Below are positions 5,091 through 35,280 of a stretch of DNA of 44,986 nt, one piece after another; position 1 is the first letter of the stretch, and every line of letters begins with the position of its first letter. The translations under genes were made by a program, and so were the position numbers. The notes under the pieces are model-generated. The model worked only from the letters and a program-made list of their open reading frames with translations. It was not told where the DNA came from and did not search any database. Origin of the DNA: Thermoplasmata archaeon (GTDB lineage: Archaea > Thermoplasmatota > Thermoplasmata > Thermoplasmatales > ARK-15); assembly GCA_039794005.1 (NCBI GenBank), contig JBAMMA010000004.1, positions 1-44,986 on the forward strand. The letters run 5' to 3'.

Positions 5091-7739
5091 ATGGATTTGA
5101 TAGATTATTCATCAGATTTAAGAAAAATTGATTTCAATTCGGGATTATATATTATAGTTGAAGGTCAAGATGAATTTGGCATTTCATTCTATATTAAAAA
5201 CCTGATAAAAAAAAGGAATGGAAATAATATTTCTATTAAATTGGAAGAAAATTCTGATAACTTAAAAAAGATACTTGAAACTTTAAATCTATCTAACCAA
5301 TACCTAAAAATTGCAAAATATTCACTATCCTATTCTCCATTAGATATTAAAAAAAATAAGAATGAGGAAAATATAGCATATATTTTAATAAAATCGAAAT
5401 TAGATGATTATTTAAATAATGAAAATAACTACCTGATAATTGAAAATATCGATTTGGCTGATTTAGATTTACAATCGATAATATTTCAAATAATTACTGA
5501 GCATATAAAAAATAAGAATAAGGGAGGAATAATATTAACGTATTCTTCTAAAAACATTAATGAAAATTTGAATGAAATTTTAATAATTTTAAAATCCCTA
5601 GGTTTTAAAGAGATTAAATTCGAAAAATTATCCGAAGATGAAGTTATAGAATACTTGCATAATGAAAATTATAATATACCAACACAGATAATATCATACA
5701 TATATTCCGAGACCAATGGAAATCTGAAGAAAATAATGGATGTAATAAAATTGATGGAAAAAAATGAGTTAATAGTAAATAAATATTATGTTGGAGAATT
5801 GACAAACTATTATTTAAGTATAATCTCTAAATTTATTGTAGAAAATATAGAGGAAAAAAAGATTTTAGAAGAACTATCTCCTGGGGAAATTGTTATAATT
5901 TTATATTTAACGTTTTTAAATAATAAAATAGACGAATTAAAATTATTGGAAATCACTAATCTTCCAGAAAAAACATTTATAGATTCTTTAGACTCTTTAA
6001 TAAGAAAAGGCATAATAAACGAAATAGGAGATGGAGTAGAAATAAAACACAAAAAATTTTCAGAATATATACAAAAAGTATTTTCCAATTTTAAATTTTC
6101 AGATGCTCATTTAAAAATTGCAAAAATAAAAGAGGAAGAGGGAAATTATTTTGAAGCTGGATTCAATTATTTTAAAGCAGGTAATTATGATAAAGCATAT
6201 GAAATTCTTAAAAAACTTGGAATTCAAGAATTTGAAAATAACAATTTTAAAAAAGCCAGAGAATGCTTTGATATTGCAATTAAAATAAAAAGGGATGATC
6301 CGGAATTAATAAAATATTATTCTCAGACATTGATGATTTACGGGGATTGGGAAGAAACTATAAAAATTATAAATGAAAATTTAAAAGAAATTGATTTAGA
6401 ATTGAAATTAATTTTGGCTGAAGCTCTTTATGAAAGTGGAAAATATAATGAATCCCTTAACCTATACAATAAAATTTTAACAGTTTCCAAAGACCCTGAT
6501 TTAATGGCAAGAGCCCTGTTTGGGATAGGTGTAAATCTCTACAATAAAAATTCATTCATAGGTGCAAAATATTTTATTGAAATGTCTAAGGAGAAAGCAA
6601 AAGAAATTAAAAATTATAAAATTTTAGCAAAATCTTTGAGAATATTAGGTAGACTTTTCTCAATGGATTTAAATTATGAGGAATCACTAAAATATTTAAA
6701 TCAATCAAAAGAGATAAGCGAATCTATTGGTGATATGAATGAATTAATAGAAACATTAATAGATTTAGGTCAAATATATTCCGAAATAAATGTTAAAGAA
6801 GGTATAAAATATTATTTTGAAGCACAAAAATTAGCTGAAAAATATTGGTATCCACAATATTTAATTCCTTTATATATAAACAATTCACTTATTTATTTAT
6901 ATAATTTTCAAATTAAGGAAATGATATTTTTATTAAAAAGAGCATATGTTTTATCAATTATACGAAAGGATTATCAAAATAGCATTAAAGCCGTTAAAAA
7001 TCTTTTCTACCAATTAATAAAATCCGGTGAATTCAACGATATTTGGAATCTTTTGATCAATGGTATAAATTATGCCGAACACCTGGGTAAAAAATATGAT
7101 ATAATAGAGTTAAAAAGTTTATCAAACATTTTGATGTTAATAAATGGAGACAATCCAGAATGGGAAAATAATTTAATTTTGTTGGAAAATTCCAATCTTA
7201 ATTATTACATAAACAGATCGTTAATAATTAAAGTTTGGTTAACTTTCTATAGTAGAGATTTTTGGAATTCAATTAATATTTTAGAATTACATTTAATTAA
7301 TCATCTAGAGGATCTAGGAATCGAAAATATTATAGATATTATAGATTTTGTTCCTTACTATATTTACAGCCTACTTGCAACAAATTCATATGAAAAAAAT
7401 AAAATTTATAAAATAATTGATAATCTAAAATATATTAAATACATAAATGATATTGATTATATAAATAAGAATTTAAAATTGCTTGATTTATTCATAAAAA
7501 TTGAAGATTCTGAAGATGAAAAAATTATAAATGATTTTTATGATTTAATTAAAATATATAAAGAGAACGGCTTATTTTATCAGACTTTTATTTACAAAAC
7601 CATATTTGGAATAGCTATGAAAAAATATAGGAATAATAATATTATTTTAAAAGATGTTTTAAGCGATTATAAAACAATTTCTGAAAAAGGTATTATAAAA
7701 GTATTTGATTTATTAAATGAATATGAAAATAACATGTAA
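5091..7739 (+). CDS. STAND-like (AAA_16-type) NTPase-wHTH-TPR protein with degenerate Walker A
   Basis: IIVEGQDEFGIS at the P-loop position, Walker B-like YLIIENIDLAD, TNGNL at the GNP helical motif, a winged-helix segment (LDSLIRKGII...KHKKFSEYI), then many TPR-like helices (AKSLRILGRLF, ETLIDLGQIY). Confidence 0.75.
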   Translation: MDLIDYSSDLRKIDFNSGLYIIVEGQDEFGISFYIKNLIKKRNGNNISIKLEENSDNLKKILETLNLSNQYLKIAKYSLSYSPLDIKKNKNEENIAYILIKSKLDDYLNNENNYLIIENIDLADLDLQSIIFQIITEHIKNKNKGGIILTYSSKNINENLNEILIILKSLGFKEIKFEKLSEDEVIEYLHNENYNIPTQIISYIYSETNGNLKKIMDVIKLMEKNELIVNKYYVGELTNYYLSIISKFIVENIEEKKILEELSPGEIVIILYLTFLNNKIDELKLLEITNLPEKTFIDSLDSLIRKGIINEIGDGVEIKHKKFSEYIQKVFSNFKFSDAHLKIAKIKEEEGNYFEAGFNYFKAGNYDKAYEILKKLGIQEFENNNFKKARECFDIAIKIKRDDPELIKYYSQTLMIYGDWEETIKIINENLKEIDLELKLILAEALYESGKYNESLNLYNKILTVSKDPDLMARALFGIGVNLYNKNSFIGAKYFIEMSKEKAKEIKNYKILAKSLRILGRLFSMDLNYEESLKYLNQSKEISESIGDMNELIETLIDLGQIYSEINVKEGIKYYFEAQKLAEKYWYPQYLIPLYINNSLIYLYNFQIKEMIFLLKRAYVLSIIRKDYQNSIKAVKNLFYQLIKSGEFNDIWNLLINGINYAEHLGKKYDIIELKSLSNILMLINGDNPEWENNLILLENSNLNYYINRSLIIKVWLTFYSRDFWNSINILELHLINHLEDLGIENIIDIIDFVPYYIYSLLATNSYEKNKIYKIIDNLKYIKYINDIDYINKNLKLLDLFIKIEDSEDEKIINDFYDLIKIYKENGLFYQTFIYKTIFGIAMKKYRNNNIILKDVLSDYKTISEKGIIKVFDLLNEYENNM

Positions 7740-10332
7740 TTTGTATGAAATTTCAAAATATTTTGATATCTTTGTTAATAATATGAAGGAAAAATTCTTT
7801 ATTCTTTCAGGAAAAGAAGGTACTGGAAAAACATCTGTTATTTTAAAGTTGGTTAAAAACTATAACATAAATTATAACTACTTTTCACCCACAGAAAAAG
7901 AGAACCAAATTGAGAATCTATTAGAATCATTAGGAATAAATAGAGAATTATACAGTAAAATTAAATACTTACAATTTTTTTCTCCCTCCTCATTTTCTAA
8001 CAATGAATCCTTTAAATTATTGTTATTAAATGATTATTTTGAAAATATAAGCAAAAGTAATGAATCAAAAATTCTAATTTTTGATGATTTTGATAAATAT
8101 AACTCAGATTTGAAGGACTTATTAATAATAAATTTTAGAAAATTATTAAATACAGAAAATTCTGTAAAAATAATTATTATTTTTACAGATGTGGATGAAA
8201 ATGATCAAATTTATCTAAAATCCATATCAGATGATATAATGATTTATGAATTGGAACCTTTAGATTTTGAACATCTAATAAAATTTTTCGAAGAAAATGG
8301 ATATCAATTGCCTAATAAAATAATAGAGATAATATATAAATATTCAGATGGATTTTTAAAAGATGCATTTAAAATTATTAAAATATTGGAAGATTTTAAA
8401 TTTATAGTAAATAAAAATTTTGTAAAGCCATTGAGTCGTGAAAATTTGGAGTTTATAAAAAATATAATAATGATGAATAAAAATGTAAATCTAAACAATT
8501 TATCAGACGATCAGATAAATTTATTATTATTTTTAACATATATAAATAATTCTATAAAATTAAGTAATATAAATAAATATATTAATATTAAAATTGATGA
8601 TATAATTCAATTAGAAAATCTTCAGATTATCAAAAGGATTAATGAAGATCTAATCTATCTCTCAACAAATTTCAATCCAAAAGAATTGGAAGAAATAATA
8701 TCAAATACAAAAAAAATGTTTATTAAAATGAGGGCAATAAAATATTTAGAGGATATTAAGGATTACATAAATTTAGGCATTATTTATTTATCAATGAATT
8801 TACACGATAAAGCTCATAATTACTTAAGAGAATATGGTTTAAAAGAATATTACAATGGAAATTTTAGTACCTCATTAAAAGCATTAGGAGAATGTTGGAA
8901 ATATCATACTGATGACAAAGAAATTGGTCTAGCCCTAATAAAAATTTATAACTTTTATGAAGATTTTGAGCATTCATTGATGATTTCTGAAAAATTGTTC
9001 GAAAAGTTTAAAAATGATTGTGAAATTAAAATCATTCATTCTATAAATCTTTATAAAAAAGAAGATTATGATAATAGTTATAAAATTTTAAATTCTTTAA
9101 TTAATGAGTGTGCTGACCTAAATATTCTTTCTCAGGCATATTTTTATTATAGTATTTTATTAAAAATATACGGTAAGATAAATGAATCGATCAAATTTTT
9201 GAACAAGGCAGAAGATATTGCAATTAAATTAAAAGATTATGACATATTACAAAAAATATATAGATTATTGGGAAATATTTATTATGAAAAAAGAGATTTA
9301 AACAGTGCAACCGATTATTATTTAAAAAGTGCTGAAATATGCAAGGATATTGGAAATTATTACGATTTGGCATCAACATATAATAATTTGGGTAATGTGT
9401 ATTCAGAGATTGACATATCTAAAGGGATAGAATATTACAGTGAAACTCTTTCAATAGCTAAAAAATATTGGTATCCAAGCTTAATAATTTCTTCGAATTC
9501 AAATCTGGCAATTATGAAATGGTATAATTTTGAAATAAAGGATGCCTATGAGATGATGATAAATTCTTATATATTATCTCTATCAAATAATAATTATACC
9601 GCTCTTCTTTTATCCTCAATAAATATTGCAGAATTATCATTAGAAATGGGAAATTATGCCGATATATATCTGTTTATTGAAAAGGCATACAATTACACGA
9701 GTAATAAAACTGATGTTTATCTATATGACGAATTAAAATTTTATTATAAAATAATAAATTTTATATATAAAAAGATTAATTTCAGTTTGGATGAATTTGT
9801 TGAATTAAAAAATTCGGGATTAAGTCAATTTATCTCATTTTATTATTATAATACTATAAGATATTATATATATTTTGGAGATTTTGAAAAAGCATCAAAT
9901 TATTTTGATGAATATTTAAAAATTAAGGAAAATAAATTTACTATAGATGATTATTTATTCATTTCTTTTTATTTACAAAATATTATGTTACATAATCTTA
10001 AACAAGGAATGAAAATTGATGAATATATATACAACATTTATAAAATACTAGAAAATGGAGTAAAAAAAATCAATTCTGTCCTAATTAATGAAATTTTTAA
10101 TGTTCTAAAATTACTCTTTAACATGCCTAATATAAATGAATTATCAACGGAATTAATTTACAACGATTTGGAAAAATTTAAAAACCAAAATCTTATAATT
10201 ACATATTATAGACTTTTATTGATATATTTTTATATACTAAATAATTATCATGGAGATAGCAGTTATTTAAATATGGTAAAGGATTTGATAAGGCAAAATC
10301 ATAAAACAGAAATATTAAAAATTTTCATATAA
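7717..10332 (+). CDS. STAND-like NTPase-wHTH-TPR protein with intact Walker A
   Basis: ILSGKEGTGKT, Walker B ILIFDDFD, TPRs such as IYRLLGNIYY and ASTYNNLGNVYSE. Paralog of the upstream gene (shared A.KYWYP motif); overlaps it by 23 bp. Confidence 0.8.
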   Translation: MNMKITCNLYEISKYFDIFVNNMKEKFFILSGKEGTGKTSVILKLVKNYNINYNYFSPTEKENQIENLLESLGINRELYSKIKYLQFFSPSSFSNNESFKLLLLNDYFENISKSNESKILIFDDFDKYNSDLKDLLIINFRKLLNTENSVKIIIIFTDVDENDQIYLKSISDDIMIYELEPLDFEHLIKFFEENGYQLPNKIIEIIYKYSDGFLKDAFKIIKILEDFKFIVNKNFVKPLSRENLEFIKNIIMMNKNVNLNNLSDDQINLLLFLTYINNSIKLSNINKYINIKIDDIIQLENLQIIKRINEDLIYLSTNFNPKELEEIISNTKKMFIKMRAIKYLEDIKDYINLGIIYLSMNLHDKAHNYLREYGLKEYYNGNFSTSLKALGECWKYHTDDKEIGLALIKIYNFYEDFEHSLMISEKLFEKFKNDCEIKIIHSINLYKKEDYDNSYKILNSLINECADLNILSQAYFYYSILLKIYGKINESIKFLNKAEDIAIKLKDYDILQKIYRLLGNIYYEKRDLNSATDYYLKSAEICKDIGNYYDLASTYNNLGNVYSEIDISKGIEYYSETLSIAKKYWYPSLIISSNSNLAIMKWYNFEIKDAYEMMINSYILSLSNNNYTALLLSSINIAELSLEMGNYADIYLFIEKAYNYTSNKTDVYLYDELKFYYKIINFIYKKINFSLDEFVELKNSGLSQFISFYYYNTIRYYIYFGDFEKASNYFDEYLKIKENKFTIDDYLFISFYLQNIMLHNLKQGMKIDEYIYNIYKILENGVKKINSVLINEIFNVLKLLFNMPNINELSTELIYNDLEKFKNQNLIITYYRLLLIYFYILNNYHGDSSYLNMVKDLIRQNHKTEILKIFI

Positions 10333-10405
10333 TCAAATTTTTTAACTTGTCAAAATTGTAAAATAAAATTTAATTAATTGTGTTAATTTAAAGAATATAG
10401 GGAAA

Positions 10406-11995
10406 ATGGTTAGCAGGTGTATAATAAAAACAAATAATGCGCAAATAATTGAAGGGGAATGTCTAGGTATAGATAATGGTTTCATATTCGTTCAAGAAAA
10501 TGGTAAATTAAAGATTCTTAATGCTATGTATTTGAGGGAGGTAAATATCGACGGAATTCTTTTTAATATAATATTTATTAATGAAAATGAAAATTTCTTG
10601 ATTCCAATTAACCTCGATACATACATTGAAAATGTTAAAAATATTATAGAGTTTATAAAGAATAATCCCAATATAAATCTGGAAGAAATCAAAAATAAGG
10701 TTCTTGATAAATTTATTTATGAAAAAGAAGCTCAGTTGAATAACTTAAAACAGGAAAATGAGGCTTTGAAAATCCAGTTTGACGAGGCATTAAAAAAGAT
10801 TAAGCTTTTCCAGGATACATTAAATGAGTTACAAAATAAATTAGATAATTTGAATAAAGCAAACGCTATTTTGACCGAACAATTGAAAAAATTCTCTAGC
10901 GGAGAAATAATAACTGAGCCTATTAAAGAAAAGCTCAATGAATTTAAAATGGAATTAGAAGAAAAAGAAAATGAGATTATTAGATTAAAAGAAGAGTTAG
11001 AAAAAATTAAAAATGTTCCTAATATAAATTTAACAGAAAGTCAATTAAATATATTGAGAGCAATTGAAGAATATCAGAAAAAAACAAATGTAGATCCATT
11101 TAAAGCCATAGAATCTTATATTAAATTGGTTTCCAAAGCTTCCGAAAAACAAATAACCCAGGATAAATCAAAAGTTGAAACTACTAAAATACAAACTCAA
11201 GAAATACCACAAAAGAAGGATGATTTGTTTCCAAACATATTTCAAACTACTGGGAAAGAAGTACAGCAAAACATTAAGTCAGAAATATTAAGGCAATTAA
11301 AAAATTACAAGGAATTTAATTTATCAAGAAATAAAAATCTTGCATCAACAGGATCCATAAAAATTGACATGGTATTGAAAGGTGGAATACCGTACGGAAA
11401 TTCCATTATGGTTTCATATACACCATTTGCCGGGGGAGATCTTTTTAGTTTGCTATTGATTTATGGTGGATTAAAATCAAATGAAAATGTGTACGTAATT
11501 TTAAATGGGATTAGTAAAAATGATTTTCTTGTTTTGTTCAACACATTTAAATCAGATTTAAATGATGAAGAACTTACAAGGCTAAGTATAAAGGAGATCG
11601 ATAACATAGAGGATATAATTTCAGAAGCTTCAAACTTTGTCTCTAAAAACACAGAAGATAGGGAAAGATTTATTGTTTATAATATAGATAAATTCTTATT
11701 TAATGGGGAAATTTCTAAATATACTTCATATTTGAATTCAATTAAATATTCTATAAAAAATACAAGGAAACTCTTGTTTATTTTTGTCACATATTCTAAA
11801 CAATTTGATAGAGATATACAATTGTTGTCCACGTACTTTTCAGCATTGTTAGAATTCCATGACCAGGAGATTGGAGACAAAATAATTCATACATTTAGAG
11901 TGCAGGGAATTCCAGCAGAAAAATATAAATGGCTTTCTTATAACATTGATGGTATTGAATTTGACCTCGAATCACCAAATATAAGAACAATATAA
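10406..11995 (+). CDS. Small beta-barrel / coiled-coil / inactive RecA-KaiC-like ATPase domain protein
   Basis: N-terminal ~50 aa has an Sm/SH3-like pattern; heptad coiled coil at about aa 105-205; C-terminal STGSIKIDMVLKGGIPYGNSIMV is the KaiC/RAD55 entry motif, but the Walker A position reads YTPFAGGDLF with no GK[TS]. Confidence 0.7.
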   Translation: MVSRCIIKTNNAQIIEGECLGIDNGFIFVQENGKLKILNAMYLREVNIDGILFNIIFINENENFLIPINLDTYIENVKNIIEFIKNNPNINLEEIKNKVLDKFIYEKEAQLNNLKQENEALKIQFDEALKKIKLFQDTLNELQNKLDNLNKANAILTEQLKKFSSGEIITEPIKEKLNEFKMELEEKENEIIRLKEELEKIKNVPNINLTESQLNILRAIEEYQKKTNVDPFKAIESYIKLVSKASEKQITQDKSKVETTKIQTQEIPQKKDDLFPNIFQTTGKEVQQNIKSEILRQLKNYKEFNLSRNKNLASTGSIKIDMVLKGGIPYGNSIMVSYTPFAGGDLFSLLLIYGGLKSNENVYVILNGISKNDFLVLFNTFKSDLNDEELTRLSIKEIDNIEDIISEASNFVSKNTEDRERFIVYNIDKFLFNGEISKYTSYLNSIKYSIKNTRKLLFIFVTYSKQFDRDIQLLSTYFSALLEFHDQEIGDKIIHTFRVQGIPAEKYKWLSYNIDGIEFDLESPNIRTI

Positions 11996-11999: not shown

Positions 12000-12197
12000 T
12001 CACATTGGATTTATTTCTATTATGTCTTTCAATTTTATTATTTTATAATCTTTGAATTTTTTATTTGCATAATTCTCATATACCATTATATGCATTGCCT
12101 TCTCTTCATTATCAAAATCTATGACATTTGCAATTAAAGAACTCTCATCCTTTAATTTTATTATTACATCCATTCCAATCAAGTCGACAAACTTCAT
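12000..12197 (-). CDS. Small Sm/LSm-like protein
   Basis: 65 aa; LIGMDVIIKLKDESSLIANVIDFD...MHI...KIIKLKDIIEINP fits the Sm1/Sm2 pattern. ATGA overlap with the upstream ATPase stop. Confidence 0.55.
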   Translation of the reverse strand: MKFVDLIGMDVIIKLKDESSLIANVIDFDNEEKAMHIMVYENYANKKFKDYKIIKLKDIIEINPM

Positions 12198-13783
12198 AAT
12201 CTTCCCACCTCTTCATATTCCTTTTGTCTTTCTGATTCGCTTGCATAATACTTAAATATTTTTGTTGTAAATGAAACAACATCATAAATTTGATTTGATT
12301 TTACCATATTATCCAAAAATTCTACCCTCTTCTTATATTCGAATTTCAAATAATCAATATCAATGCCGTGAACCTCCGAAATTTTCCTTAAAATATAACT
12401 TTCTATTCCAACCTTAAATGTGTCTGTTAAAGAATCCCACTGAAAATATGGATTTAGATTCATCCTTTCATAATTTTTGTCAAAATAATATTCATCAACT
12501 TCAAAAATACGCCTAACGGGAATGTTGTTTCTAATTGCATGCTTTAAAACTATAAATATATCTATATTTGCAATCTGATTTTTAGGAATATTTAAAGGAG
12601 GCTCTGTTAACCTTTTTACTGCTGATTCAACGTCTTCAGCATGAAAAGTCGTGTATCCAGTCTTACCAGTTGCCAACGCTTGAAACATGTATGCGGCTTC
12701 TTGTCCTCTTACCTCACCTACAACTAAATATTCAGGTCTCTGCCTTAAAACATTTTTAACTAGGTCCATCATTGTTATTTCTCCTACCTTTTCATATATT
12801 CCATATGGATTTATTACTCCCACGGCTCCTCTAGTTACTGCAGGAACCCAATTTTCATGATAGAGATTTAATTCTCTTGTATCCTCTATGCTAACAATTT
12901 TGGCAAATGGTTTTGCAAACATTAGTATACTATTTAACATCGTTGTTTTACCAGTTGCTGTTCCCCCTATAATCATTATATTTGCAAAATATTGAACAGC
13001 TAACCATAAATATGCATATATTTCGGATGATGCAGTATTTGATCTTATCAAATCTATTGGCGTAAATGGTTTTTCGGTGAATTTTCTAACCGATAAGGCC
13101 GGACCAGTAATAACGACATCATTACTTATAGTTGCCTGTATTCTTGATCCATCTGGGAGCGAGGAATCAACAATGGGCTCTACATATGAAATATGCTTCC
13201 CGCTCATCTCAGTAATTTTTCTAATTAATTTTTCAGAATCTTCATCGTTATGGAAAACAATGTTTGTTTTTATTGAACCGTATTTTTTATGGTAAATATA
13301 TACTTTATTTCTTGTTACAGTAATATCCTCGATATTATTTTTATCTTTAATAGGTACAGTCAAAGGACCATATGCTAAATATTTTTTATATAATTCATAG
13401 TAAATTTTTTCACCACTTCTTTTCGAAAATCCACGACTCATCATATCCTCTAAAATGTATTCCCTCAACTTCTTCTTTTTAAGCTCAATATTTACATCTT
13501 CTTGAAAAGTAATCTTTTCAGGTAATCTTGTCATTAATATCTTTATATACCTTTCCAATTCCTTTTGCTCTTTTAAAGTTAAAATAGGCTCAATTACCCA
13601 GTAAATTACATCTCCGAATCCACCCTCGTCTTTAAAAATTTTTACTGCGGAATACCCGGGTTCAACATTATAGAATTCAAGCTCGACATAGCCTGTGGGA
13701 ACATGAGGCATTATTAATAAATCCTTTGGAACTATGGATGTTACGCCAGTTCTACCTTTTCTTTTACCTATAAAAAGTGCCAT
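12194..13783 (-). CDS. Type II/IV secretion (archaeal T4P, TadA/ArlI-like) ATPase, set A, TGK variant
   Basis: Walker A GGTATGKTT, Asp-box IEDTREL, Walker B LRQRPEYLVVGEVRG, His-box TGKTGYTTFHA. Confidence 0.93.
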   Translation of the reverse strand: MALFIGKRKGRTGVTSIVPKDLLIMPHVPTGYVELEFYNVEPGYSAVKIFKDEGGFGDVIYWVIEPILTLKEQKELERYIKILMTRLPEKITFQEDVNIELKKKKLREYILEDMMSRGFSKRSGEKIYYELYKKYLAYGPLTVPIKDKNNIEDITVTRNKVYIYHKKYGSIKTNIVFHNDEDSEKLIRKITEMSGKHISYVEPIVDSSLPDGSRIQATISNDVVITGPALSVRKFTEKPFTPIDLIRSNTASSEIYAYLWLAVQYFANIMIIGGTATGKTTMLNSILMFAKPFAKIVSIEDTRELNLYHENWVPAVTRGAVGVINPYGIYEKVGEITMMDLVKNVLRQRPEYLVVGEVRGQEAAYMFQALATGKTGYTTFHAEDVESAVKRLTEPPLNIPKNQIANIDIFIVLKHAIRNNIPVRRIFEVDEYYFDKNYERMNLNPYFQWDSLTDTFKVGIESYILRKISEVHGIDIDYLKFEYKKRVEFLDNMVKSNQIYDVVSFTTKIFKYYASESERQKEYEEVGRL

Positions 13784-22271: not shown

Positions 22272-22763
22272 TTAAACATTTGACGTAAATGTATAACTAT
22301 ATGAAACAATATTACCTGAAATTATTTTGAAAGAATAACCATATAAAGATGTTCCGAGATTCTGATAATTTATTATTATTACATCTCCTGCATCGAGTTT
22401 TCCATCATTATTTACATCAACAATTGTAACAGTAATTTTTCCTTTATCTGCAGATATTTTAACCGGTGTTGTTGTCAAAACTACTCCATAAGAATTAATA
22501 AGATTTTGACCGGATGGGCTTTCCAAATACAGATAGAATGGGGATGGAATTGAACCGGATTCCACTATAAAAACATACTGATCATTTTGTTCACTGATTA
22601 CTGACATTTGTAAATATGAAGATGTACCTTTCGATGATGTAACACCTGTATATAGACCAGAAGCATACAAATACAAAGCTAAAGCTAAAATTACCGTTAA
22701 AGCTAATATTAAAAGTGTTGATAGTATTTCAGATATTCCATTTTCTTTGTTTAATATATTCAC
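22272..22763 (-). CDS. Archaeal type IV pilin (Pilin_N/DUF1628-like)
   Basis: NKENG|ISEILSTLLILALTVILALALYLY class III signal peptide; 163 aa; C-terminal DVNNDGKLDAGD loop. Confidence 0.85.
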   Translation of the reverse strand: MNILNKENGISEILSTLLILALTVILALALYLYASGLYTGVTSSKGTSSYLQMSVISEQNDQYVFIVESGSIPSPFYLYLESPSGQNLINSYGVVLTTTPVKISADKGKITVTIVDVNNDGKLDAGDVIIINYQNLGTSLYGYSFKIISGNIVSYSYTFTSNV

Positions 22764-23763: not shown

Positions 23764-23773
23764 GGTGATTAAA

Positions 23774-25647: not shown

Positions 25648-25656
25648 GGTGAAAAA

Positions 25657-27323: not shown

Positions 27324-30300
27324 TTATTTCTTTTCTTCTTGTGGTAATGGTGAACCACATACTTTACAATATTTTGATCCCTTTGGATTCGGTGTACCGC
27401 ATACTGGGCATATCACCGTGGGTCCAGACTCTTCTCCTTTTCTCTCTAAGAATCTCTCAAATGTCATAAACTCTGGCTTATTTGACCACCATTTATAGAA
27501 TTCCTCATCTGAGAACTTATCACCAAGATCTCTCTTAGCTTCGTCTTTGTATTTCTGTATTTCAAGATCATACTCTTTCTTATATTCAACTAACTTCTGG
27601 TATTCTGGATCTGTTTCTTCAGCATAAACAACACCGCACACTGGGCAGTATTTAGCATCCTTCTTAATCCATGAACCGCAGTTACCGCATTTGACATTTT
27701 CTTTCTCGAATACAACACCGCACACTGGGCATTTATCAGCATCAGCAGGTATTAGACTTCCGCAGTTTCCGCATACCATCAGATTCTTTTCAACTTTCTT
27801 GTACTTCATGTAAGAATATCCAAAGAATCCAACGATCACAATAACAACTACAATAATCGCAATGATCCAGAGTGGAATAGATATAGGAGGAGATGATATG
27901 GATAATTCTTCTGGATAATTATAAGTCAAAACACTGGATGATAAAGAATATCTTATACTTATAGGATAATTTCCTGCAGATTTAACTGTGATGGAGAATA
28001 TTGCAACACCTGATGCCCCTGTATTTCCAGTATAGTAGTATGGTCCAATATATAAATCTACAGGAACATTTTTCATATACACGATTCTACCCTGTTGCCT
28101 GGTGGCATTATTATTTTCAATCATTACACTAACTGTAAATGACTGACCTGTCTGGTATGGTGGAGATGGATTAAAGCTTACAAATACAGTTGTTTGTGGC
28201 ATTACACCATAATAATAGAATGTTGCAGACTTTGGTCCGGGTACCTTTTGAACTATGTTTGTATAATTGACATAAGCGGTAATGGGCGTTAACCCATAAT
28301 TATTTACGGTCAAATTGTAATATACATTAACTATTTGGCCTGGAGTTATATTATTCACGGTCTTTGTAAATATTGTTGTACCATTCATGGTTATATTTAT
28401 GTATGTTGTACCTATAGCTGTCCAACCCCCTGTATTTTCAATAGACAATTTTATTTCGAAAGATACTCCTATAGGTATGTTTAATTCATTTAGGCTACTT
28501 ATATATGTTATGCTATTATTTGGTATATATGTAAATTGTAATATTGTTAATTCTGGCCTTTCAAATACTGTGAATGAATTTGAATATAGGACTACATAAT
28601 ATGGATAAATCTGCGGGTAAGTAACATAAACATAATATGTTACGGGCACGGCATTTCTATTATTGAAAGGCAATATTGAAGTATTTAAATAATAAATAAC
28701 TGATACAAATTCTCCGGGTGTTGCGTTATATACCCATACCTTCTGGATGTTTAGCAATGGAATTTGCAATACTATATTTAAATTCGTTATGGATATAGGG
28801 CCAACCGTAAAATTGACGTATATTGGCACAACACTACCATTCATGAATGGACCGGTAGAGGATGAAATAGATGAGACGGAGATTTGAACTGATGGTATGT
28901 TAATTGTAAAGTTGTAATAAACATATGTTATCTTAGAAAGGTTGTAATATGGATTTGCCAATATTGCCTCAATCCTATACGTATGCCCGTACATGAAATA
29001 GTTTGTGGTTAAATTTGCATAGAGATAGCCATTTGAATAATAAGTCATAACATTGTTTAAGAATATTCCATCAGATAGATCATAATATGATACAGTTACA
29101 TTTGGTGCATATTTTGGAATAACATTTGAAACACCAATCTTCGTGAATAATAATATGTTCATTGGCTGAGTGAATGTGATGTTTGATAAAACAACATAAT
29201 TGGAAGGTGTTTGTATGAAATAATAAATTATGCTTGATTGTGTAGTATTGCTTAAAACCATTTCTTGAGGATTTATATCCCAGTAATAATATGCCTTCAC
29301 GTAGGCATAATAATACCCTGGATTTGTAGGAGTAAACCTATAATTCAATATTATGGATGATTTACCGTTCAAAGATATATACCAGGTTTTTGTTGCATTC
29401 ATATTTGGACCTAGTAGTCTCATGTATACCTCAAATTGACCTGTTGGATCTGTTCCTAAATTGCTAACAGTAATGTTTATAGATAAATTGGAATACAATA
29501 CTATAGGTGGGAATTTTATTGAAGATATTGCTATTTCTACATCTGGATATATTGTGATCCTTTCTACATAATAATCTCCTGAATAATTGCTCTCCAATAT
29601 TGACTTGGTTGGATTTACGGTAACATTTAATGTGTAGTTTCCAGGAACTATATTATCTGGAACTATATAATTGACTGACACATTATTTGTTCTGTTTGTG
29701 TATAAATTTGCATAAACCGTTTTTATAAAACCTGGCAATTTAAATTGAACTGGTACATTTGTCAGATTACCACCATAAACCTTTATTTTTGCTGTTATGG
29801 TATAATTATGATTGTGTATCATCATCATTGAAGAAGTTACATTTGTCACTATTATCTGGGGAATTACTATTTTCATTGGAATTAAGTAATAATTCATTTT
29901 TGTATAGAGATTTGGAAATGGTGGCAAACCAATTTCCATATTCCTTAAAACACGCCCATTTAAAGATAAATTAAATAGGTAATTTCCTCCATATAATGCA
30001 TTTGGCCAATATTGCATTTGAACTATATCACTGAATAATGGAACTATTCCTATTCCAGAAAGATTTGTTTTAAATGAATTAGATATTGAGAATTTTGAAT
30101 ATAATATTGTATTATATTGATTTACCGTGGAATTACTTAAAACTACATTTGTCCCCTGATATTGATTAAGTATATCTGGACTAACGGATATGTTTACTCC
30201 AGATATCGGCTCCTTATTAAAATTGTATAATTTGAATACAGCATATCTGTATAAATAAATGGCTGAATTCGAATCCATCCAATATGGAGGATCGTAGTTA

Positions 30301-31556
30301 TTAACTGTTGTATTTATAATGGTAAAGTTTAATATATATGCTCGAGAATTTTGCATGAATATCATGTTTTTCTGCGGGTTTCCATTTACATATGTACTAT
30401 TTAAGCTGATAAATAAATCCTTTGCATACATAACAGAATTGATTAAATTGAAATTGTGTAAATAAAAATCATTTTGGTTATTGTAATTTATGGGATCAGA
30501 TAGATTTATTGTAATTGAATTTATGGTGATATATCCTACTTTAGGACCAGTCACATTTATAAATATATTACCATTTGTTTCAAAGAATGACTGATTAACC
30601 AAAAAGATATCTCTTGAAAAGGATATTAAATTCCAAGTGTAAGATGTTGGTTTAATGCTAGGAGATAGAGAAGGCAACGGTTGTGTTGTTACACCTTTGA
30701 AATAAGGATATATTGTGGCCCCAGTAGAATTTAGACTTGATGTTGTATAATTTATTGTTAAAGTTGCGTTATAAAACGTTAAATATGGAAATAGACTCAT
30801 TGGAAAACTAAAGGTTTTTAAAACTGTAACTGTCTGACCTGCATATACTTTGTTTGTAATAAGATTTCCAGTTCCAGTAATAACAGTTAAAATTGTATTT
30901 GAAGGTACCCATGATGGTAAATTCATAAATGCCCCACCATTTATAAAAATTTGATCATTAACTAGATATGGAACTGGTCCATGATTTATCAAATAATCAT
31001 ATTGAGCTTGATAACCAAAATCATTTGCCATTGATATTTGGTTTGGAGAGGGAGAGCTAAAAGTAGAATTAATTATGTAAATATTGGAATTTGATATATT
31101 AAACCAACCTGGATATGATATTCTTGAATTTTTAATTATTAGGGTCCCACCATCGTCAATAATTGTGAAATTTAACGTTGGTGCGTATCTATCTGGCTCT
31201 GTAGTTAAAATGGCATTGTTTAAATATAAAACTCCACCTGATTGTATTGTTAAAGTTACTGGAGATAATTGATCGGAAATGAAATACAGGGTAGCATTAT
31301 TAACTGTTAAATTACCCGTAGGTGTAATAACAACATTGTCCGAAAATCCATATAATCCCTTTTGACCTGTTATTGGATCTACCGTTGTTGAATTAATGAC
31401 GAATTGTGTTGAAACATAAACTGTTGGATAATTTTCTGCCTTCAGTTTGTAATTATTTATAGAAACACTTGTAGGATTCATTATTGATGATAAAGACGTT
31501 AATAACAACGCAATTATAATTAAGACTGATAAAGTCTTATAAACCAATATTGACAC
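27324..31556 (-). CDS. Large cell-surface protein with CARDB-like repeats, TM helix and cytoplasmic zinc ribbons (set B paralog)
   Basis: Collinear with 17914..22239 (DPITGQKGLYG~DPLTGKYGYYG; WPNALYGGNY~FPNGLYLGNY; ITIYPDV~ITIYPNV); TM helix; six CxxC. The start may be TTG 31547 after GGAGGTG. Confidence 0.82.
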   Translation of the reverse strand: MSILVYKTLSVLIIIALLLTSLSSIMNPTSVSINNYKLKAENYPTVYVSTQFVINSTTVDPITGQKGLYGFSDNVVITPTGNLTVNNATLYFISDQLSPVTLTIQSGGVLYLNNAILTTEPDRYAPTLNFTIIDDGGTLIIKNSRISYPGWFNISNSNIYIINSTFSSPSPNQISMANDFGYQAQYDYLINHGPVPYLVNDQIFINGGAFMNLPSWVPSNTILTVITGTGNLITNKVYAGQTVTVLKTFSFPMSLFPYLTFYNATLTINYTTSSLNSTGATIYPYFKGVTTQPLPSLSPSIKPTSYTWNLISFSRDIFLVNQSFFETNGNIFINVTGPKVGYITINSITINLSDPINYNNQNDFYLHNFNLINSVMYAKDLFISLNSTYVNGNPQKNMIFMQNSRAYILNFTIINTTVNNYDPPYWMDSNSAIYLYRYAVFKLYNFNKEPISGVNISVSPDILNQYQGTNVVLSNSTVNQYNTILYSKFSISNSFKTNLSGIGIVPLFSDIVQMQYWPNALYGGNYLFNLSLNGRVLRNMEIGLPPFPNLYTKMNYYLIPMKIVIPQIIVTNVTSSMMMIHNHNYTITAKIKVYGGNLTNVPVQFKLPGFIKTVYANLYTNRTNNVSVNYIVPDNIVPGNYTLNVTVNPTKSILESNYSGDYYVERITIYPDVEIAISSIKFPPIVLYSNLSINITVSNLGTDPTGQFEVYMRLLGPNMNATKTWYISLNGKSSIILNYRFTPTNPGYYYAYVKAYYYWDINPQEMVLSNTTQSSIIYYFIQTPSNYVVLSNITFTQPMNILLFTKIGVSNVIPKYAPNVTVSYYDLSDGIFLNNVMTYYSNGYLYANLTTNYFMYGHTYRIEAILANPYYNLSKITYVYYNFTINIPSVQISVSSISSSTGPFMNGSVVPIYVNFTVGPISITNLNIVLQIPLLNIQKVWVYNATPGEFVSVIYYLNTSILPFNNRNAVPVTYYVYVTYPQIYPYYVVLYSNSFTVFERPELTILQFTYIPNNSITYISSLNELNIPIGVSFEIKLSIENTGGWTAIGTTYINITMNGTTIFTKTVNNITPGQIVNVYYNLTVNNYGLTPITAYVNYTNIVQKVPGPKSATFYYYGVMPQTTVFVSFNPSPPYQTGQSFTVSVMIENNNATRQQGRIVYMKNVPVDLYIGPYYYTGNTGASGVAIFSITVKSAGNYPISIRYSLSSSVLTYNYPEELSISSPPISIPLWIIAIIVVVIVIVGFFGYSYMKYKKVEKNLMVCGNCGSLIPADADKCPVCGVVFEKENVKCGNCGSWIKKDAKYCPVCGVVYAEETDPEYQKLVEYKKEYDLEIQKYKDEAKRDLGDKFSDEEFYKWWSNKPEFMTFERFLERKGEESGPTVICPVCGTPNPKGSKYCKVCGSPLPQEEKK
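27628..27731. repeat. 84-bp-period intragenic repeat with exact 20-bp core ACAACACCGCACACTGGGCA (27628-27647 and 27712-27731)
   Basis: Encodes the two CGNCGS..I...A..CPVCGVV zinc-ribbon units. Confidence 0.85.
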
Positions 31557-31745: not shown

Positions 31746-32627
31746 ATGTGCAATTTAATAACTCATATGGATTCTGACGGAGTTATTTCGGCATATTTAA
31801 TAGTGAAATATGTAGAAAGACCTAAGAGAATTTATTTTTCCAACCCATCTATAATAAAGGATTCTATTGCGAGATCAATTTTGGGAGATGATAATTTAGA
31901 TAAGCTATATGTATTGGATATTGCCGCCAATGAAATTGCTTTAAAATTGGCCTCTGTTTATAATAAAGCGATATGGATAGATCATCATCAATGGGCACCT
32001 ATTAAGAATTACGATAATGTTGAAATTCATCTCATGAATGAACCCAGTGCTGCAGCTGTTATCGGAAATGTTTATTTAATATACGACAACCTAATTGAGA
32101 TGGCAAATCATCTTGATCAAAATCAACCTCAAAATGATAAAGAAATAAAATTCAGAGATCTTATATCTTCACTGAGATTTTATAAAGGACGTGGTGTTGA
32201 ATATGCTTTGGAAAATTTGGTTTATAAAATGACTGAAGTAGATGTTGATTCGATAATTGAAGAAAATATTGAATTGATTGAAGCATTTCAAAATGATATA
32301 AAGAAAATAGAAAATGAAATTAAATCAAACACTAAAAAGTTTATTATAAAAAATTATAGGGTAACGATAATAGAAACAAAGGCAAATATACCTGTATACA
32401 AAATTCAAGAAATAGTAGATGACGATTGGGATATATTAATAGTTAAGTTTGTGAGATTCAACAGGGATTTTGTATTTACCAAATTTGAATTTAGATCCAA
32501 AGGTCCTGATGTATTGAAATTAGCAATAGCATTTGGTGGAGGAGGCCATATCAGAGCTGCAGGAGCATCTTTAAAGGGTGTTATACCATTAGAGGATTTG
32601 TTGAATGCACTCAACGTGTTTTTATAG
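31746..32627 (+). CDS. DHH/DHHA1 family phosphoesterase
   Basis: THMDSDG, VLDIA, WIDHH, and C-terminal FGGGGHIRAAGA. Confidence 0.9.
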   Translation: MCNLITHMDSDGVISAYLIVKYVERPKRIYFSNPSIIKDSIARSILGDDNLDKLYVLDIAANEIALKLASVYNKAIWIDHHQWAPIKNYDNVEIHLMNEPSAAAVIGNVYLIYDNLIEMANHLDQNQPQNDKEIKFRDLISSLRFYKGRGVEYALENLVYKMTEVDVDSIIEENIELIEAFQNDIKKIENEIKSNTKKFIIKNYRVTIIETKANIPVYKIQEIVDDDWDILIVKFVRFNRDFVFTKFEFRSKGPDVLKLAIAFGGGGHIRAAGASLKGVIPLEDLLNALNVFL

Positions 32628-33590
32628 ATAATAAAATGGGGATCTTTTTTGCTCAATGGCAATTTCCAACGCCTCTTTTATTAAATCATACCTGGTTATG
32701 CTTTTATTTGTCAAATATCCTATTGCACCATCATTTTTTCCTATATCTTTTGTTCCATAATATTTATCAAAATCTGGGCCTATTTCATATTTGAATTTCT
32801 CCATGAAAGAATCTGGGTAAATGAAACCTCTGGATATTGAATAATTTACATTTTTCAAAGAATCTATAATCGTAACAATATGCACATCAAAATATTTTTT
32901 GATAATTTTATTGTAAATTAAAGTTGCCTCAATTCCTATTCCATAATCATTATCTTCCAAAGCTTGCCAGGCCCTTTCGTATGAGCAGATTAAACCCTCC
33001 TCAAAATTGAGTGGCTGATTAATATTTAGTTTAACGTTTTTTCCTGTCACCTCATAATCTTTAAAATACTTCAAAAATACGTCCTTTACTGCTTTAATTT
33101 TTAATTCATTGTTTGTCCCAACTGATATTCTTATTTTTTTGAGTCTCTTTCCATTTTCATCAATATCTCCCTTCATTATCCTCGTGGAAGTTATTGGAAT
33201 AAAATCTTCTGCCAGTACTCTTCCTATGTTGATGATATTTAAGGGTTTTTTACCTTTTGATATTCTTAAATTGTTTATTTCAATTGCATAACGTTTTGTT
33301 TCATAACTAACAACTATAGAATCAAAATCTTCAACTATTGTTGGACCATAATGATCTTCTATCTTTCTTATTTCATAATTTTTATTAAAGATCTTCAAAT
33401 AGTTTTCGAGGTTCCTTTTTCTTTCTTCAAAACTCTTAACATTATATGTTCTTACCGACCTCGAAAATTCGTCGCTTGTAAGTCCAATTAAAATGTAATC
33501 ACCGATTTCAAATGCTTTATTTATCAATCTCTTATGTCCTTCATGAATTATTTGAAAGGTCCCACCAATGGCTACCCTCATTTTAATCAT
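32622..33590 (-). CDS. coaD: Bifunctional phosphopantetheine adenylyltransferase / inosine-xanthosine triphosphatase (YjjX-like)
   Basis: RVAIGGTFQIIHEGH (HxGH), IVVSYET and ITSTRI, then VGTNNELKIKAV and DYGIGIEA. The start may be ATG 33581. Confidence 0.88.
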   Translation of the reverse strand: MIKMRVAIGGTFQIIHEGHKRLINKAFEIGDYILIGLTSDEFSRSVRTYNVKSFEERKRNLENYLKIFNKNYEIRKIEDHYGPTIVEDFDSIVVSYETKRYAIEINNLRISKGKKPLNIINIGRVLAEDFIPITSTRIMKGDIDENGKRLKKIRISVGTNNELKIKAVKDVFLKYFKDYEVTGKNVKLNINQPLNFEEGLICSYERAWQALEDNDYGIGIEATLIYNKIIKKYFDVHIVTIIDSLKNVNYSISRGFIYPDSFMEKFKYEIGPDFDKYYGTKDIGKNDGAIGYLTNKSITRYDLIKEALEIAIEQKRSPFYYL

Positions 33591-33624
33591 TTATGAATAG
33601 ATAAATAATATTTAAAGTGTGATA

Positions 33625-35280
33625 TTATTCTTCCTCTTCCAATTTCAATTCTTTCATTATTTCCTTCATAGTTTCATTTGGATCCCTATAATAATTTGTT
33701 ATAACTTTCCAGATGTCCCTATAATCGGTCATATTTTTTTGTACCATATATCTGATAACATTTACCCTTCTTTCAAACTCTTGATCCATCTCTTCATGAG
33801 TCCAATTTTTCAAGTTAATTATCTTATCATACAAGTATGAATGGCCCTTGAATATGAATTTGTCTTTCTTTGGATCCCACTCAAATACAACGTTTGTAAT
33901 CAGCTCATTTGTTTCTGGTTCAAAACCAACAATTTCAACTATTTCTTTTATTCTCCTTACCTGCTGATCCCTTACCTTAACTTGTGTTTGAATAATAACA
34001 TTGTTTAAAGCTGTCATCAATATCCTAGGCGTATTAATGGGTGGGTTTTCAAGTCTATTTACCATGGCCTTAACAGATTCAGCATGCATTGTTGAATACG
34101 TTGTATGGCCAGTTGCCATTGCCTGGAACATCGTGTATGTCTCTTTTCCTCTTACCTCTCCGACTATTATGTACCTTGGTCTCTGCCTCAGGGCTGCCCT
34201 GACCAGATCATACATGTCTATTTCGCCTGAGGCTTTACCTGTCAGGCTTTTTTCACCTACACCACTCCTTGTTGTACCCGGTATCCAATTTTGATGGGGT
34301 AGATTTATTTCCCTTGTATCCTCTATACTTACTATCTTAGCGGCCGGCGGTATAAAAATGGCTATTGCATTTAAAGTGGATGTCTTTCCACTTGCCGGAC
34401 CACCTATGATTATCATAGATTCTCCAAGTTCAACACCAAGCCATAAATAGGCAACCATTTCTGGATCTGCCGTATGAAATTTTACAAGATCTGTTGGTGT
34501 GAATGGTTTTTCCTTGAATCTCCTTATTGTAAAAGTTGCACCTCTGGTGGTAACTTCTCTGGCATATGTGGCCTGAACTCTGTGGCCTTCAGGAGTTGTA
34601 CCATCTAAGATAGGATCTGAAACCGATATTTGCTTCATGCACTTCTGAGCAATATAAACAATGAAGCTATTTAGTTCATCATCATCGTGAAAGATCACAT
34701 TTGTCTTTATTGAACCGTATTCTCTATGGTATATGTAAATTGGAATGTTAACACCATCACAAGAGATATCTTCCACATTTTCATCATTAATTAAAGGATC
34801 AATCTTTTGATATTTAACAAAATCTCTTTTTACGTAGTAAAACAACCTTTCAAGATCCATTGGAGCTACGTGGATATTTCTGCTTTCCAAATATTTATGT
34901 ACAGATTCTGTTAAATATCTTTCTTTTTCAGTAGAGGTTTTCAGGTACCATTCATACTTTAATGTCTGATTCAATGATGAATAAACCTCATTTAAAATTT
35001 GATTCATTCTATAGCTCAATGGCGGTTCAATCACTTCATAATAATATTCATAGGTTTTTGTATTAAATAATATCCTGGCAAATGTATAAGGATATGTAAT
35101 TCTGTATATCTTTTCTACTTTAAAATCAGGATTATTGATTGGAGGAATTGGAGTCATAGCAGACAATGTTGTTTCTCCTGATATTACCTTAATTTTCATT
35201 GGCCTATTAATTTTGAATAATTTTTTGTAAACACTTAACGTCAAATGATCCATTGAACTATAATCACTTTTCTCTACCAT
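33625..35280 (-). CDS. Type II/IV secretion (archaeal T4P) ATPase, TGH variant (probable second ATPase of set B)
   Basis: GGPASGKTS, IEDTREI, LRQRPRYIIVGEVRG, TGHTTYSTMHA; closely resembles 25657..27309 (shared VEDISCDGVNIPIYIYHR and VHRLENPPIN~VNRLENPPIN). Confidence 0.95.
   Translation of the reverse strand: MVEKSDYSSMDHLTLSVYKKLFKINRPMKIKVISGETTLSAMTPIPPINNPDFKVEKIYRITYPYTFARILFNTKTYEYYYEVIEPPLSYRMNQILNEVYSSLNQTLKYEWYLKTSTEKERYLTESVHKYLESRNIHVAPMDLERLFYYVKRDFVKYQKIDPLINDENVEDISCDGVNIPIYIYHREYGSIKTNVIFHDDDELNSFIVYIAQKCMKQISVSDPILDGTTPEGHRVQATYAREVTTRGATFTIRRFKEKPFTPTDLVKFHTADPEMVAYLWLGVELGESMIIIGGPASGKTSTLNAIAIFIPPAAKIVSIEDTREINLPHQNWIPGTTRSGVGEKSLTGKASGEIDMYDLVRAALRQRPRYIIVGEVRGKETYTMFQAMATGHTTYSTMHAESVKAMVNRLENPPINTPRILMTALNNVIIQTQVKVRDQQVRRIKEIVEIVGFEPETNELITNVVFEWDPKKDKFIFKGHSYLYDKIINLKNWTHEEMDQEFERRVNVIRYMVQKNMTDYRDIWKVITNYYRDPNETMKEIMKELKLEEEE

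Follow-up and report, generated by a model that had tools for sequence, protein, structure and literature searches.

The DNA considered here, hereafter the window, is the whole of contig C4 (44,986 bp) of a Thermoplasmata archaeon, the assembly of which (G000) comprises 1.10 Mb in 20 contigs, is 87% complete and has a coding density of 92% and a GC content of 0.30. Two gene sets for archaeal type IV pili (T4P), designated A and B, are found at positions 12000-35280, and a run of three genes that code for two STAND-TPR proteins and an inactivated KaiC-like protein converges on the end of set A. The region is best read as coding for a pair of adhesive type IV pili whose machinery, with two FlaI-like ATPases, a TadC-like platform split in two and class III pilins, is of the CdiP type described for Cuniculiplasma divulgatum. 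An earlier note on this DNA had described two pilus gene sets, each with a single-pass zinc-ribbon protein of about 1400 residues, and this description is confirmed, the frames being open as reported there. Gene identities were assigned from a listing of the open reading frames (ORFs) and from Pfam and NCBIfam scans, and comparisons were made with 40 other genomes of the same order (41 including G000). The congeneric genome is labelled G001, families and genera are labelled f and g, respectively, and fetched loci and metagenome contigs are labelled L.

The set-A operon extends on the minus strand from 22763 to 12000 and consists of eight tightly overlapping genes. It opens with a pilin of 163 amino acids (aa) (22272-22763), which matches arch_flag_Nterm (TIGR02537) above and Pilin_N below the cut-off, followed by a giant surface glycoprotein of 1441 aa (17914-22239) with a signal peptide, CARDB, one transmembrane helix and three zinc ribbons in its tail. 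The third gene (17087-17917) codes for a pilin-like protein of 276 aa, a paralogue of the 280-aa protein of set B, with the class III signal peptide KKERG/VAEVLGFLLV and one hydrophobic segment after it. An upstream ATPase, ATPaseA2 (15495-17090; PF00437, E=1e-31), two single-domain T2SSF (TadC-like) half-platforms (14641-15498 and 13787-14674; one PF00482 match each) and a downstream ATPase of the T2SSE/FlaI type, ATPaseA1 (12194-13783; PF00437, E=5e-32), complete the machinery, and the last gene (12000-12197) codes for a conserved small protein of 65 aa and overlaps the stop of ATPaseA1 by 4 nt. The Walker A, Walker B and His-box columns of the ATPases, including G278, K279 and T280, are invariant in an alignment of 13 sequences.

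Set B is collinear with set A, and the set-A proteins are just 24-40% identical to their set-B counterparts. The set-B operon (22921-27309, plus strand) comprises a pilin-like protein of 280 aa (22921-23763), in which the class III signal peptide YKDRG/VASV precedes one hydrophobic segment, ATPaseB1 (25657-27309; PF00437) and, between these, two T2SSF proteins with one PF00482 match each, a pair likewise collinear with that of set A. The 276- and 280-aa proteins are thus best regarded as pilin-like, and not as mere hypothetical proteins, because of their class III signal peptides and single hydrophobic segments. The giant set-B surface glycoprotein (1410 aa; 27324-31556, minus strand), with CARDB and zinc ribbons, converges on ATPaseB1 across a gap of 14 nt. 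The upstream-type ATPase of the set, ATPaseB2 (33625-35280, minus strand; PF00437 and PilB3_C), is parted from the operon by two unrelated genes. All four ATPase genes, two per set, are recognised by PF00437 at E<=1e-31, and they are all the FlaI-type ATPase genes of the assembly that tblastn finds in G000; in the same search with FlaI-type ATPases no archaellum motor genes were seen elsewhere in G000.

FlaI-type matches at E<=1e-20 were obtained in 37 of the 40 relatives, and most of those outside the genus carry two. The gene order in loci from five other genera (L035-L039) is a pilin-like protein of about 290 aa, an upstream-type ATPase, TadC, TadC, a downstream-type ATPase and a convergent giant; in a further locus that ends at a contig edge (L041), TadC, TadC, an ATPase and the convergent giant are visible. 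In a maximum-likelihood tree built from 23 ATPases, an upstream clade (support 96/91) stands apart from a downstream side (86/81), each spanning the order, and ATPaseB2 groups with the former and ATPaseB1 with the latter. Loci orthologous to set B were identified in the families f1, f3 (genus g17), f4, f5 and f6. Since its two ATPases fall into the order-spanning downstream and upstream groups, set B represents the order's ancestral locus. ATPaseB2, which lies inside the operon in the genera g2 and g3 and in the families f4 and f5, has become detached from the locus in the present genus. The two intervening genes (31746-33590), one for a DHH/DHHA1 phosphoesterase and the other for a cytidylyltransferase-like/NTPase_I-T protein, lie between the set-B giant and ATPaseB2, are kept in the congener and mark a rearrangement, as ATPaseB2 is part of the operon in other genera.

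The layout closely resembles that of the CdiP pilus of C. divulgatum, the two ATPases and two-gene platform of which are called unique among archaeal operons in a 2025 report (PMC12448462), which presents two-ATPase pili as peculiar to a single Thermoplasmatales species and does not settle what the second ATPase does. Two ATPases in one locus of Aciduliprofundum boonei were already noted by Makarova et al. 2016 (PMC4858521). The points of likeness to CdiP, as far as that report describes it, are two FlaI/AapE-like ATPases per locus, a platform in two genes, class III pilins and a Thermoplasmata host, and the order ATPase, TadC, TadC, ATPase is found in set A and in the set-B loci of the relatives. 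Compared with the same partial description, each set here adds a gene for a pilin-like protein of about 280 aa and one for a CARDB-bearing giant whose tail holds zinc ribbons. The system is, moreover, present twice in the window, unlike CdiP, and set A adds a pseudo-ArlH and the 65-aa protein. Bacterial Tad and archaeal Epd pili, reportedly treated by Denise et al. in 2019, are said to share the platform of two single-domain TadB/TadC-like proteins and the FlaI/TadA-type ATPase; the present loci differ from them in having two ATPases each, no TadZ or secretin and a giant zinc-ribbon partner. The two-ATPase layout is both ancestral in the order and widespread there, and not confined to one species.

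Both giants have a signal-like N-terminal segment, an ectodomain that is free of Cys and contains 43-47 N-x-S/T sequons, one C-terminal transmembrane helix near residue 1210-1250 and a K/R-rich cytoplasmic tail in which 12 Cys form three CxxC...CxxC ribbons. The same plan recurs in all ten giant homologues compared, from five families, each of which has exactly 12 tail Cys and 0-3 ectodomain Cys; a conserved helix, EEF.KWW...PE..SF, lies between ribbons 2 and 3 in these ten. The tail is the best conserved part, and good alignment in distant families is limited to the C-terminal third; therefore the tail and the membrane-proximal part are conserved and the ectodomain diversifies. With the set-B giant as the query, a match was obtained in 24 of the 40 relatives (f1 15/15, f5 6/7, f4 1/1, f6 1/1, f3 1/8, f7 0/7, f2 0/1). 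In 21 of these 24 the giant is located within about 0.5 kb of a downstream-type ATPase, as judged by hand from alignment coordinates, the exceptions being G015 (different contigs), G032 (7.8 kb) and G037 (19 kb). The association of giants and pili proposed in the earlier note is thus borne out by synteny conserved across at least four families, and in both sets the giants are part of the pilus system.

A search with the tail over 5.8 billion proteins returned 51 clusters; those that bear a name go under 'CARDB domain-containing', 'zinc ribbon domain-containing', 'hypothetical' or, by mis-assignment, a small zinc protein, and their stated sources are Thermoplasmata, Aciduliprofundum or Euryarchaeota. 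No giant of the set-A type was found outside the genus with the tail query, all 50 matches assignable to one of the two giants (bigA or bigB) being nearer the set-B giant. No paper linking the giant zinc-ribbon protein to pili was found in literature searches, although the supplements of PMC12448462 and PMC4858521 may list it. The variable and heavily glycosylatable ectodomain is probably an adhesin or a cell-surface coat, and the conserved tail, with its three zinc ribbons and the EEF.KWW helix, probably contacts a cytoplasmic partner in the pilus machine. The pilus layout is usually accompanied by a giant glycoprotein, the conserved tail of which must meet something cytoplasmic, and the giant is a specific candidate for the device by which cells lacking a rigid wall hold in place or regulate their pilus motor. 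Two further proteins, P0062 and P0063 (1145-1249 aa), carry numerous C(P)xCG zinc ribbons and, towards the C-terminus, a TPR array. A 'Rosetta-stone' link of ribbons to TPR proteins through these two was considered and rejected, the similarity being of a generic zinc-ribbon nature and not extending to STAND2.

Set A appears to be a strongly diverged, collinear second system. Its ATPases are on branches of 2.6-3.0 substitutions per site in the tree of 23 ATPases, as against a median end branch of 0.16, and their placement is unsafe because these branches are very long. An orthologue of ATPaseA1 at E<=1e-112 was found in none of 400 sampled genomes of the class, and among 168 other genomes of the order in G001 only. 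Orthologues with 54-62% identity were found in three outside clusters (P0067, P0068 and P0069), the remaining 115 of the 120 matches listed showing 37-44%; the three are far closer to ATPaseA1 than to ATPaseA2, ATPaseB1 or ATPaseB2. They are located in bins with differing labels, one of which is named Infirmifilum sp. Set A was probably acquired, as it is otherwise known just from a few distant hot-spring lineages, and together with the KaiC-like gene it gives the impression of a unit that is rare, of patchy distribution and probably transferable. Set A represents a second, rare subtype of the pilus, which travels with an inactivated relative of ArlH.

The KaiC-like protein of 529 aa (10406-11995, plus strand) begins with a beta-rich domain, continues as a coiled coil and closes with an inactivated domain of the RecA/KaiC type. 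Its best family match is FlaH (NF004723, E=1e-8) with 35 bits against a cut-off of 194, and further matches, also below their cut-offs, are to ArlH (NF052589, 22.6 vs 215 bits), PF06745 (17.8 vs 26.6 bits) and KaiC_arch_4. A profile of the C-domain matches, among the PDB entries, SSO2452 (2w0m, E=1.8e-6), KaiC and FlaH (4yds, E=1e-3), and homology to the KaiC/RecA superfamily is supported by these comparisons. In the alignment with SSO2452, GTGKT faces tgGdL and TTEES faces LnGis; the Walker A Lys and Thr and the catalytic Glu pair are thus replaced, and the replaced columns are conserved in all five family members. The same five share the architecture of an N-terminal beta-rich domain of about 70 residues, a coiled coil and a C-domain of about 230 residues.

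The family is very narrowly distributed. A HMMER search over 1.84 billion representative proteins gave eight matches at E<=1e-3, and of the four clusters at E<=1e-10 one belongs to the congener (73% identity) and the other three are 440-472 aa long. The family alignment found just coiled-coil or stand-alone KaiC matches in 400 genomes of the class and no member in viral contigs; a homologue from the metagenome contig L050, described below, had no match in plasmids and phages, and residues 1-80 of the protein had no usable match in the ESM Atlas.

ArlH binds the archaellum ATPase ArlI and needs ATP binding and autophosphorylation to work with it (10.1101/2021.03.19.436134). The KaiC-like protein resembles ArlH in that its C-domain has FlaH/ArlH and KaiC as the best family matches and in that it is encoded beside a FlaI-type ATPase. 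It differs in its scores below the curated cut-offs, in the replaced residues, which exclude ATP binding and autophosphorylation, in the additional N-terminal domain and coiled coil of about 200 aa and in the lack of archaellum genes in the assembly. As the residues needed for ATP binding and autophosphorylation are missing, it appears to be ArlH-like by ancestry and unable to act as a phospho-switch of the ArlH type. KaiC-family ATPases are frequent neighbours of archaeal T4P loci, as stated by Makarova, Koonin and Albers 2016 (PMC4858521), and the present protein resembles these and CirA of Haloferax volcanii in being encoded beside, and presumably modulating, a T4P-type machine; those proteins are described as active and autophosphorylating, whereas the KaiC-like protein would be a conserved pseudo-enzyme of another architecture and very narrow distribution. 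Many further KaiC paralogues unrelated to pili (15 matches, 11 over the cut-off) are present in G000.

The arrangement of the KaiC-like gene and set A is kept in G001 and in three metagenome contigs, which lie within the genus and provide shallow evidence in terms of evolutionary depth. Evidence from outside the genus is provided by L050, a metagenome contig with a GC content of 0.48, in which a KaiC-like homologue (26% identity) is located 131 bp upstream of a pilin gene; the pilin is 45% identical to that of set A and at most 34% identical to the other pilins of G000. In addition, three KaiC-like records at NCBI have accession numbers that are 146, 226 and 1186 away from those of three ATPaseA1-like records, and from this numbering alone the paired records appear to belong to the same three assemblies; one fourth KaiC-like record and two further ATPaseA1-like records are unpaired by accession. 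The KaiC-like and ATPaseA1 families are also split alike, into the pair from the genus and three outside lineages. Thus, of the tie between convergent genes and set A that the earlier note had suggested, the part concerning the KaiC-like gene is supported by the pilin neighbour in L050 and by the co-occurrence with ATPaseA1, and the part concerning the STAND pair is not. On this comparative evidence the KaiC-like pseudo-ATPase probably belongs to set A, at odds somewhat better than even. A set-A subtype with an inactivated ArlH relative would provide a handle on the recruitment of KaiC-like proteins to type IV machines.

A polytopic membrane protein of 251-253 aa is encoded directly upstream of the KaiC-like homologues in L050 (9100-9855), L049 (2600-3355) and L051 (73-834). 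It is 51% identical between two lineages and matches no Pfam or NCBIfam model, and no homologue of the 251-aa protein was found in G000. On another contig of G000 (C17:149100-153900; L053 9122-13902), a cluster with a VirB4/HerA-like ATPase of 516 aa (AAA_10, DUF87, TraG P-loop) and four unannotated neighbours was observed. This cluster occurs across family f1, with 67%, 36%, 34% and 31% identity in four genomes, is related to an array with a split VirB4 in L050 and could be a DNA transfer system of the Ced/Ted kind.

The 65-aa protein that closes the set-A operon had been labelled Sm-like in the earlier note. Its ORF shows 78-95% identity and a dN/dS of 0.04-0.09 in three pairwise comparisons of three sequences, and is a real gene on account of these dN/dS values. 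It was found in G000 and G001 only, among the 41 genomes. The Sm label is at most tentative: no match to the LSM family PF01423 was found, just one to NeqB_N at E=0.007; the search against PDB gave nothing better than E=0.18, and the ESM Atlas gave unnamed clusters only. A canonical LSM gene is present elsewhere in G000, on C1 (PF01423, E=8e-22). Homology of the protein to the N-domain of the KaiC-like protein gained no support (BLASTP E=1.0, hhalign probability 0.3%). The ORF is a conserved last gene of the set-A operon, and its product is probably a co-translated accessory of set A.

The stop codons of the KaiC-like gene and the 65-aa ORF are separated by 4 bp, a gap recorded in the earlier note. 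The gap is ordinary in G000, in which a crude set of ORFs (80 aa or longer) yields 182 convergent pairs with a median gap of 0 bp; it is uninformative because 74% of these pairs are within 10 bp and the 14-nt gap between ATPaseB1 and the set-B giant is alike. The spacer upstream of the KaiC-like gene (10333-10405, plus strand; 73 nt) contains a conserved A/T block of 21 nt, TGTAAAATAAAATTTAATTAA, which is identical in G000, G001, L046 and L047. Since the block is unchanged in all four and synonymous sites between G000 and G001 are saturated, the spacer is likely to hold a separate promoter for the KaiC-like gene.

The convergent run begins with STAND1 (5091-7739, plus strand), which carries TPR repeats and a degenerate Walker A, reading FGISF where its paralogues read G[IT]GKT. 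STAND2 (7717-10332, plus strand) shows weak AAA_22, AAA and NPHP3_N matches together with TPR (TPR_12), and its Walker A, GTGKT, is intact; a degenerate and an intact STAND-TPR gene on the same strand, convergent to set A, had been described in the earlier note and are indeed present. The two genes overlap by 23 nt, STAND2 is followed by the KaiC-like gene after 73 nt, and both distances are kept in G001. STAND NTPases with TPR sensor arms include those of the MalT or Avs type, which share with the present pair the combination of a P-loop NTPase at the N-terminus and long TPR arrays behind it, lineage-specific expansion and fast evolution. The pair differs from these in that PADLOC matches are weak and no effector domain is detected; when the STAND, KaiC-like, Sm-like and pilin-like proteins were submitted to PADLOC, the best match was at E=1.7e-4, to a TPR model, and no defence system was called.

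The distribution of the STAND family argues against a role in the pilus system. STAND2 has five matches in G000 and eight in G001, and with a sixth copy on C11 there are at least six paralogues in G000; two of the six aligned copies are without the Walker A Lys and a third reads GKL. The other copies are found amid varied, mostly housekeeping genes (FtsZ and LSM, an MFS transporter, a cation-efflux protein) and are syntenic between the congeners, and the homologues in genus g4 are likewise flanked by housekeeping genes. Twelve loci of STAND homologues outside the block were annotated with Pfam or through BLAST comparison with the G000 proteome and revealed no pilus gene, and three more loci were viewed by ORF size only. 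In the family's 14 other genomes, which are fragmented metagenome-assembled genomes (MAGs) where a gene may be missed and not absent, no STAND homologue was found within 20 kb of a pilus ATPase; in one genome the two share a contig at a distance of 50 kb. Nor do the KaiC-like homologues in L049/L050 and L051 have an adjoining STAND gene, the membrane protein being upstream instead. Within the block the two STAND genes evolve fastest, with 58-59% identity to G001 (STAND1 59%, STAND2 58%) as against 71-94% for the other 16 genes. A link of the STAND pair to the pilus genes, as envisaged in the earlier note, is therefore not borne out by its dispersed paralogues (0/14 genomes within 20 kb, 0/12 loci). 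The pair is probably not part of the pilus system on these grounds, a functional link being unlikely, and such striking STAND-TPR genes are not to be counted into a pilus system on adjacency alone.

Some other features of the STAND genes were recorded. The low GC content of the region (0.21-0.22) was considered as a sign of foreign origin and rejected, as other paralogues have 0.25-0.28; it is driven by protein composition, 58% of the residues being K, N, I, E, Y or F. A paralogue of 850 aa lies between the canonical LSM gene and ftsZ (C1:24054-28088; L026 4055-8089) and is kept in the congener, and the family is thus found in unrelated contexts. The P-loop is also degenerate in a further STAND-TPR paralogue, the neighbour of which is a protein of 1190 aa without a Pfam match (C14:11904-18154; L028), and STAND homologues of genus g4 (L030, L031, L033 and L034) are near proteins of >1000 to 1430 aa that are also without matches. 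Pairing of STAND genes with large proteins, which are unrelated to the zinc-ribbon giants, may be recurrent.

The explanation that best accommodates these observations combines twin CdiP-type pili, their giants, a KaiC-like accessory and the STAND genes as bystanders, and as a whole it is held with a confidence just above even. The KaiC-like protein would be an ArlH-like pseudo-ATPase that no longer binds or hydrolyses ATP, and its most likely role would be to provide the set-A motor with a scaffold or docking factor, by analogy with the docking of ArlH on ArlI. The STAND pair would most likely represent fast-evolving members of a lineage-expanded, dispersed family that by chance are located at a rearrangement boundary beside set A. 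Several observations weigh against this explanation. Outside the genus, at least two of the three paired MAGs carry the KaiC-like gene on one contig and the ATPaseA1 orthologue on another (the longest being 11108 vs 18654 in one pair and 191135 vs 21590 in another), and accession numbering is the sole ground on which the records were paired. The flanks of the L050 homologue (10 kb upstream, 4.3 kb downstream) are without a T2SSE or TadC gene and are occupied by a co-directional array that includes a conjugation-type split VirB4 (CD1110 family, E=3e-51). Only two deep lineages are involved, and the co-occurrence could mirror one shared mobile island and not a function. The conserved co-directional spacing of the STAND genes may still reflect a recruitment of the pair specific to this genus. 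Finally, the giant was not found in f7 (0/7), although G033 of that family (L043) has the order of two ATPases and two TadC genes that is described for pili seen in Cuniculiplasma (PMC12448462), and as it was not found there the giant is not an obligate part of the machine.

The earlier note had proposed that the convergent genes form one regulatory module, in which the STAND pair, the KaiC-like protein and the Sm-like protein act as a cytoplasmic switch that reads contact through the zinc-ribbon tails and gates pilus A. It is true that STAND1, STAND2 and the KaiC-like gene are co-directional, tightly spaced and conserved in G001, that the KaiC-like family is tied to set-A components, that the conserved cytoplasmic tails imply an intracellular partner and that the STAND pair occupies the operon position held by the membrane protein beside the KaiC-like gene in other lineages; ArlH, moreover, binds ArlI (10.1101/2021.03.19.436134). 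However, the STAND paralogues are dispersed and never pilus-linked elsewhere, the KaiC-like homologues in L049/L050 and L051 have no STAND gene beside them, the conserved block suggests that the KaiC-like gene has its own promoter, the 4-bp gap is ordinary and the similarity of P0062 and P0063 is generic, with none to STAND2. With the KaiC-like gene tied to set A and the STAND pair dispersed elsewhere, a single module is not upheld, and the switch is considered decidedly unlikely. An extended form, in which the giant is a transmembrane signalling and anchoring subunit, the pseudo-ATPase docks on the set-A motor and gates its assembly or retraction on contact with a surface or a partner cell, the fast-evolving STAND pair is a ligand-gated input and the 65-aa protein is an adaptor, is given very little chance; if true, it would represent an archaeal counterpart of the surface sensing by bacterial pili, on a horizontally mobile module.

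At the other extreme, the neighbourhood could be a pure accident, with none of the convergent genes working with the pilus and the KaiC-like gene and set A hitch-hiking on one spreading island. The block from 5 to 22.8 kb is genus-specific and located at a synteny break, the ATPaseA1 orthologues are in differently labelled bins that include Infirmifilum sp., L050 combines a GC content of 0.48 with a conjugation-like VirB4 array, the outside KaiC-like and ATPaseA1 genes are on different contigs and the genome holds its many pilus-unrelated KaiC paralogues (15 matches, 11 over the cut-off). Such an accident would not readily explain why the immediate neighbour of the L050 homologue is specifically a pilin of the set-A type, why FlaH/ArlH, which partners a homologous ATPase, should be the family that the inactive domain matches best, or why the KaiC-like gene is under purifying selection and its architecture conserved across very divergent hosts; KaiC-family proteins are also recurrent T4P neighbours (PMC4858521). 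A pure accident is therefore regarded as improbable but worth keeping in view. The embedding of the L050 KaiC-like gene and set-A-type pilin in one co-directional split-VirB4 array (CD1110, E=3e-51) is also what would be expected if set A and the KaiC-like gene were a mobile module for aggregation or DNA exchange and not a surface-adhesion pilus. Ups pili with Ced/Ted serve cell-cell aggregation and DNA exchange; UpsA is the best named NCBIfam match of both pilins, below the cut-off, G000 has its own VirB4-like cluster on C17, and the distribution across hosts is patchy. Against this, the cluster of G000 is on another contig amid housekeeping genes, the UpsA matches are weak and, for the G000 pilin, largely N-terminal, the array is known from a single contig and the giant CARDB glycoprotein of set A fits adhesion equally, so a DNA-exchange module is thought quite improbable.

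The prepilin peptidase model Peptidase_A24 (PF01478) found no match in G000 (87% complete) or in G001, G004, G019, G023 and G033, three of these five relatives being 99% complete and class III pilins and pilus machines being present. Since the model is silent in six genomes despite such pilins and machines, the prepilin peptidase of the order must be too divergent for PF01478 or belong to another family; the model may simply miss it. A scan for bacterial promoters and terminators was uninformative (84 sites vs 76 expected).

The stretch from 5 to 22.8 kb is extra relative to genus g4, and no convincing att-like direct repeats were found around 3-23 kb. The adjoining region at 3121-5090 (1.97 kb, GC 0.25) contains no ORF above 61 aa and has no Rfam, tRNA or Pfam match. 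This left flank differs even between the congeners, and just 4779-4990 is conserved (79% identity), its counterpart in G001 being at the end of a contig the genes of which match C17 of G000. A small minus-strand ORF within 4779-4990 looks open in G001 and has an in-frame stop in G000, and the region from 3121 to 5090 may represent a decayed gene at a rearrangement boundary.

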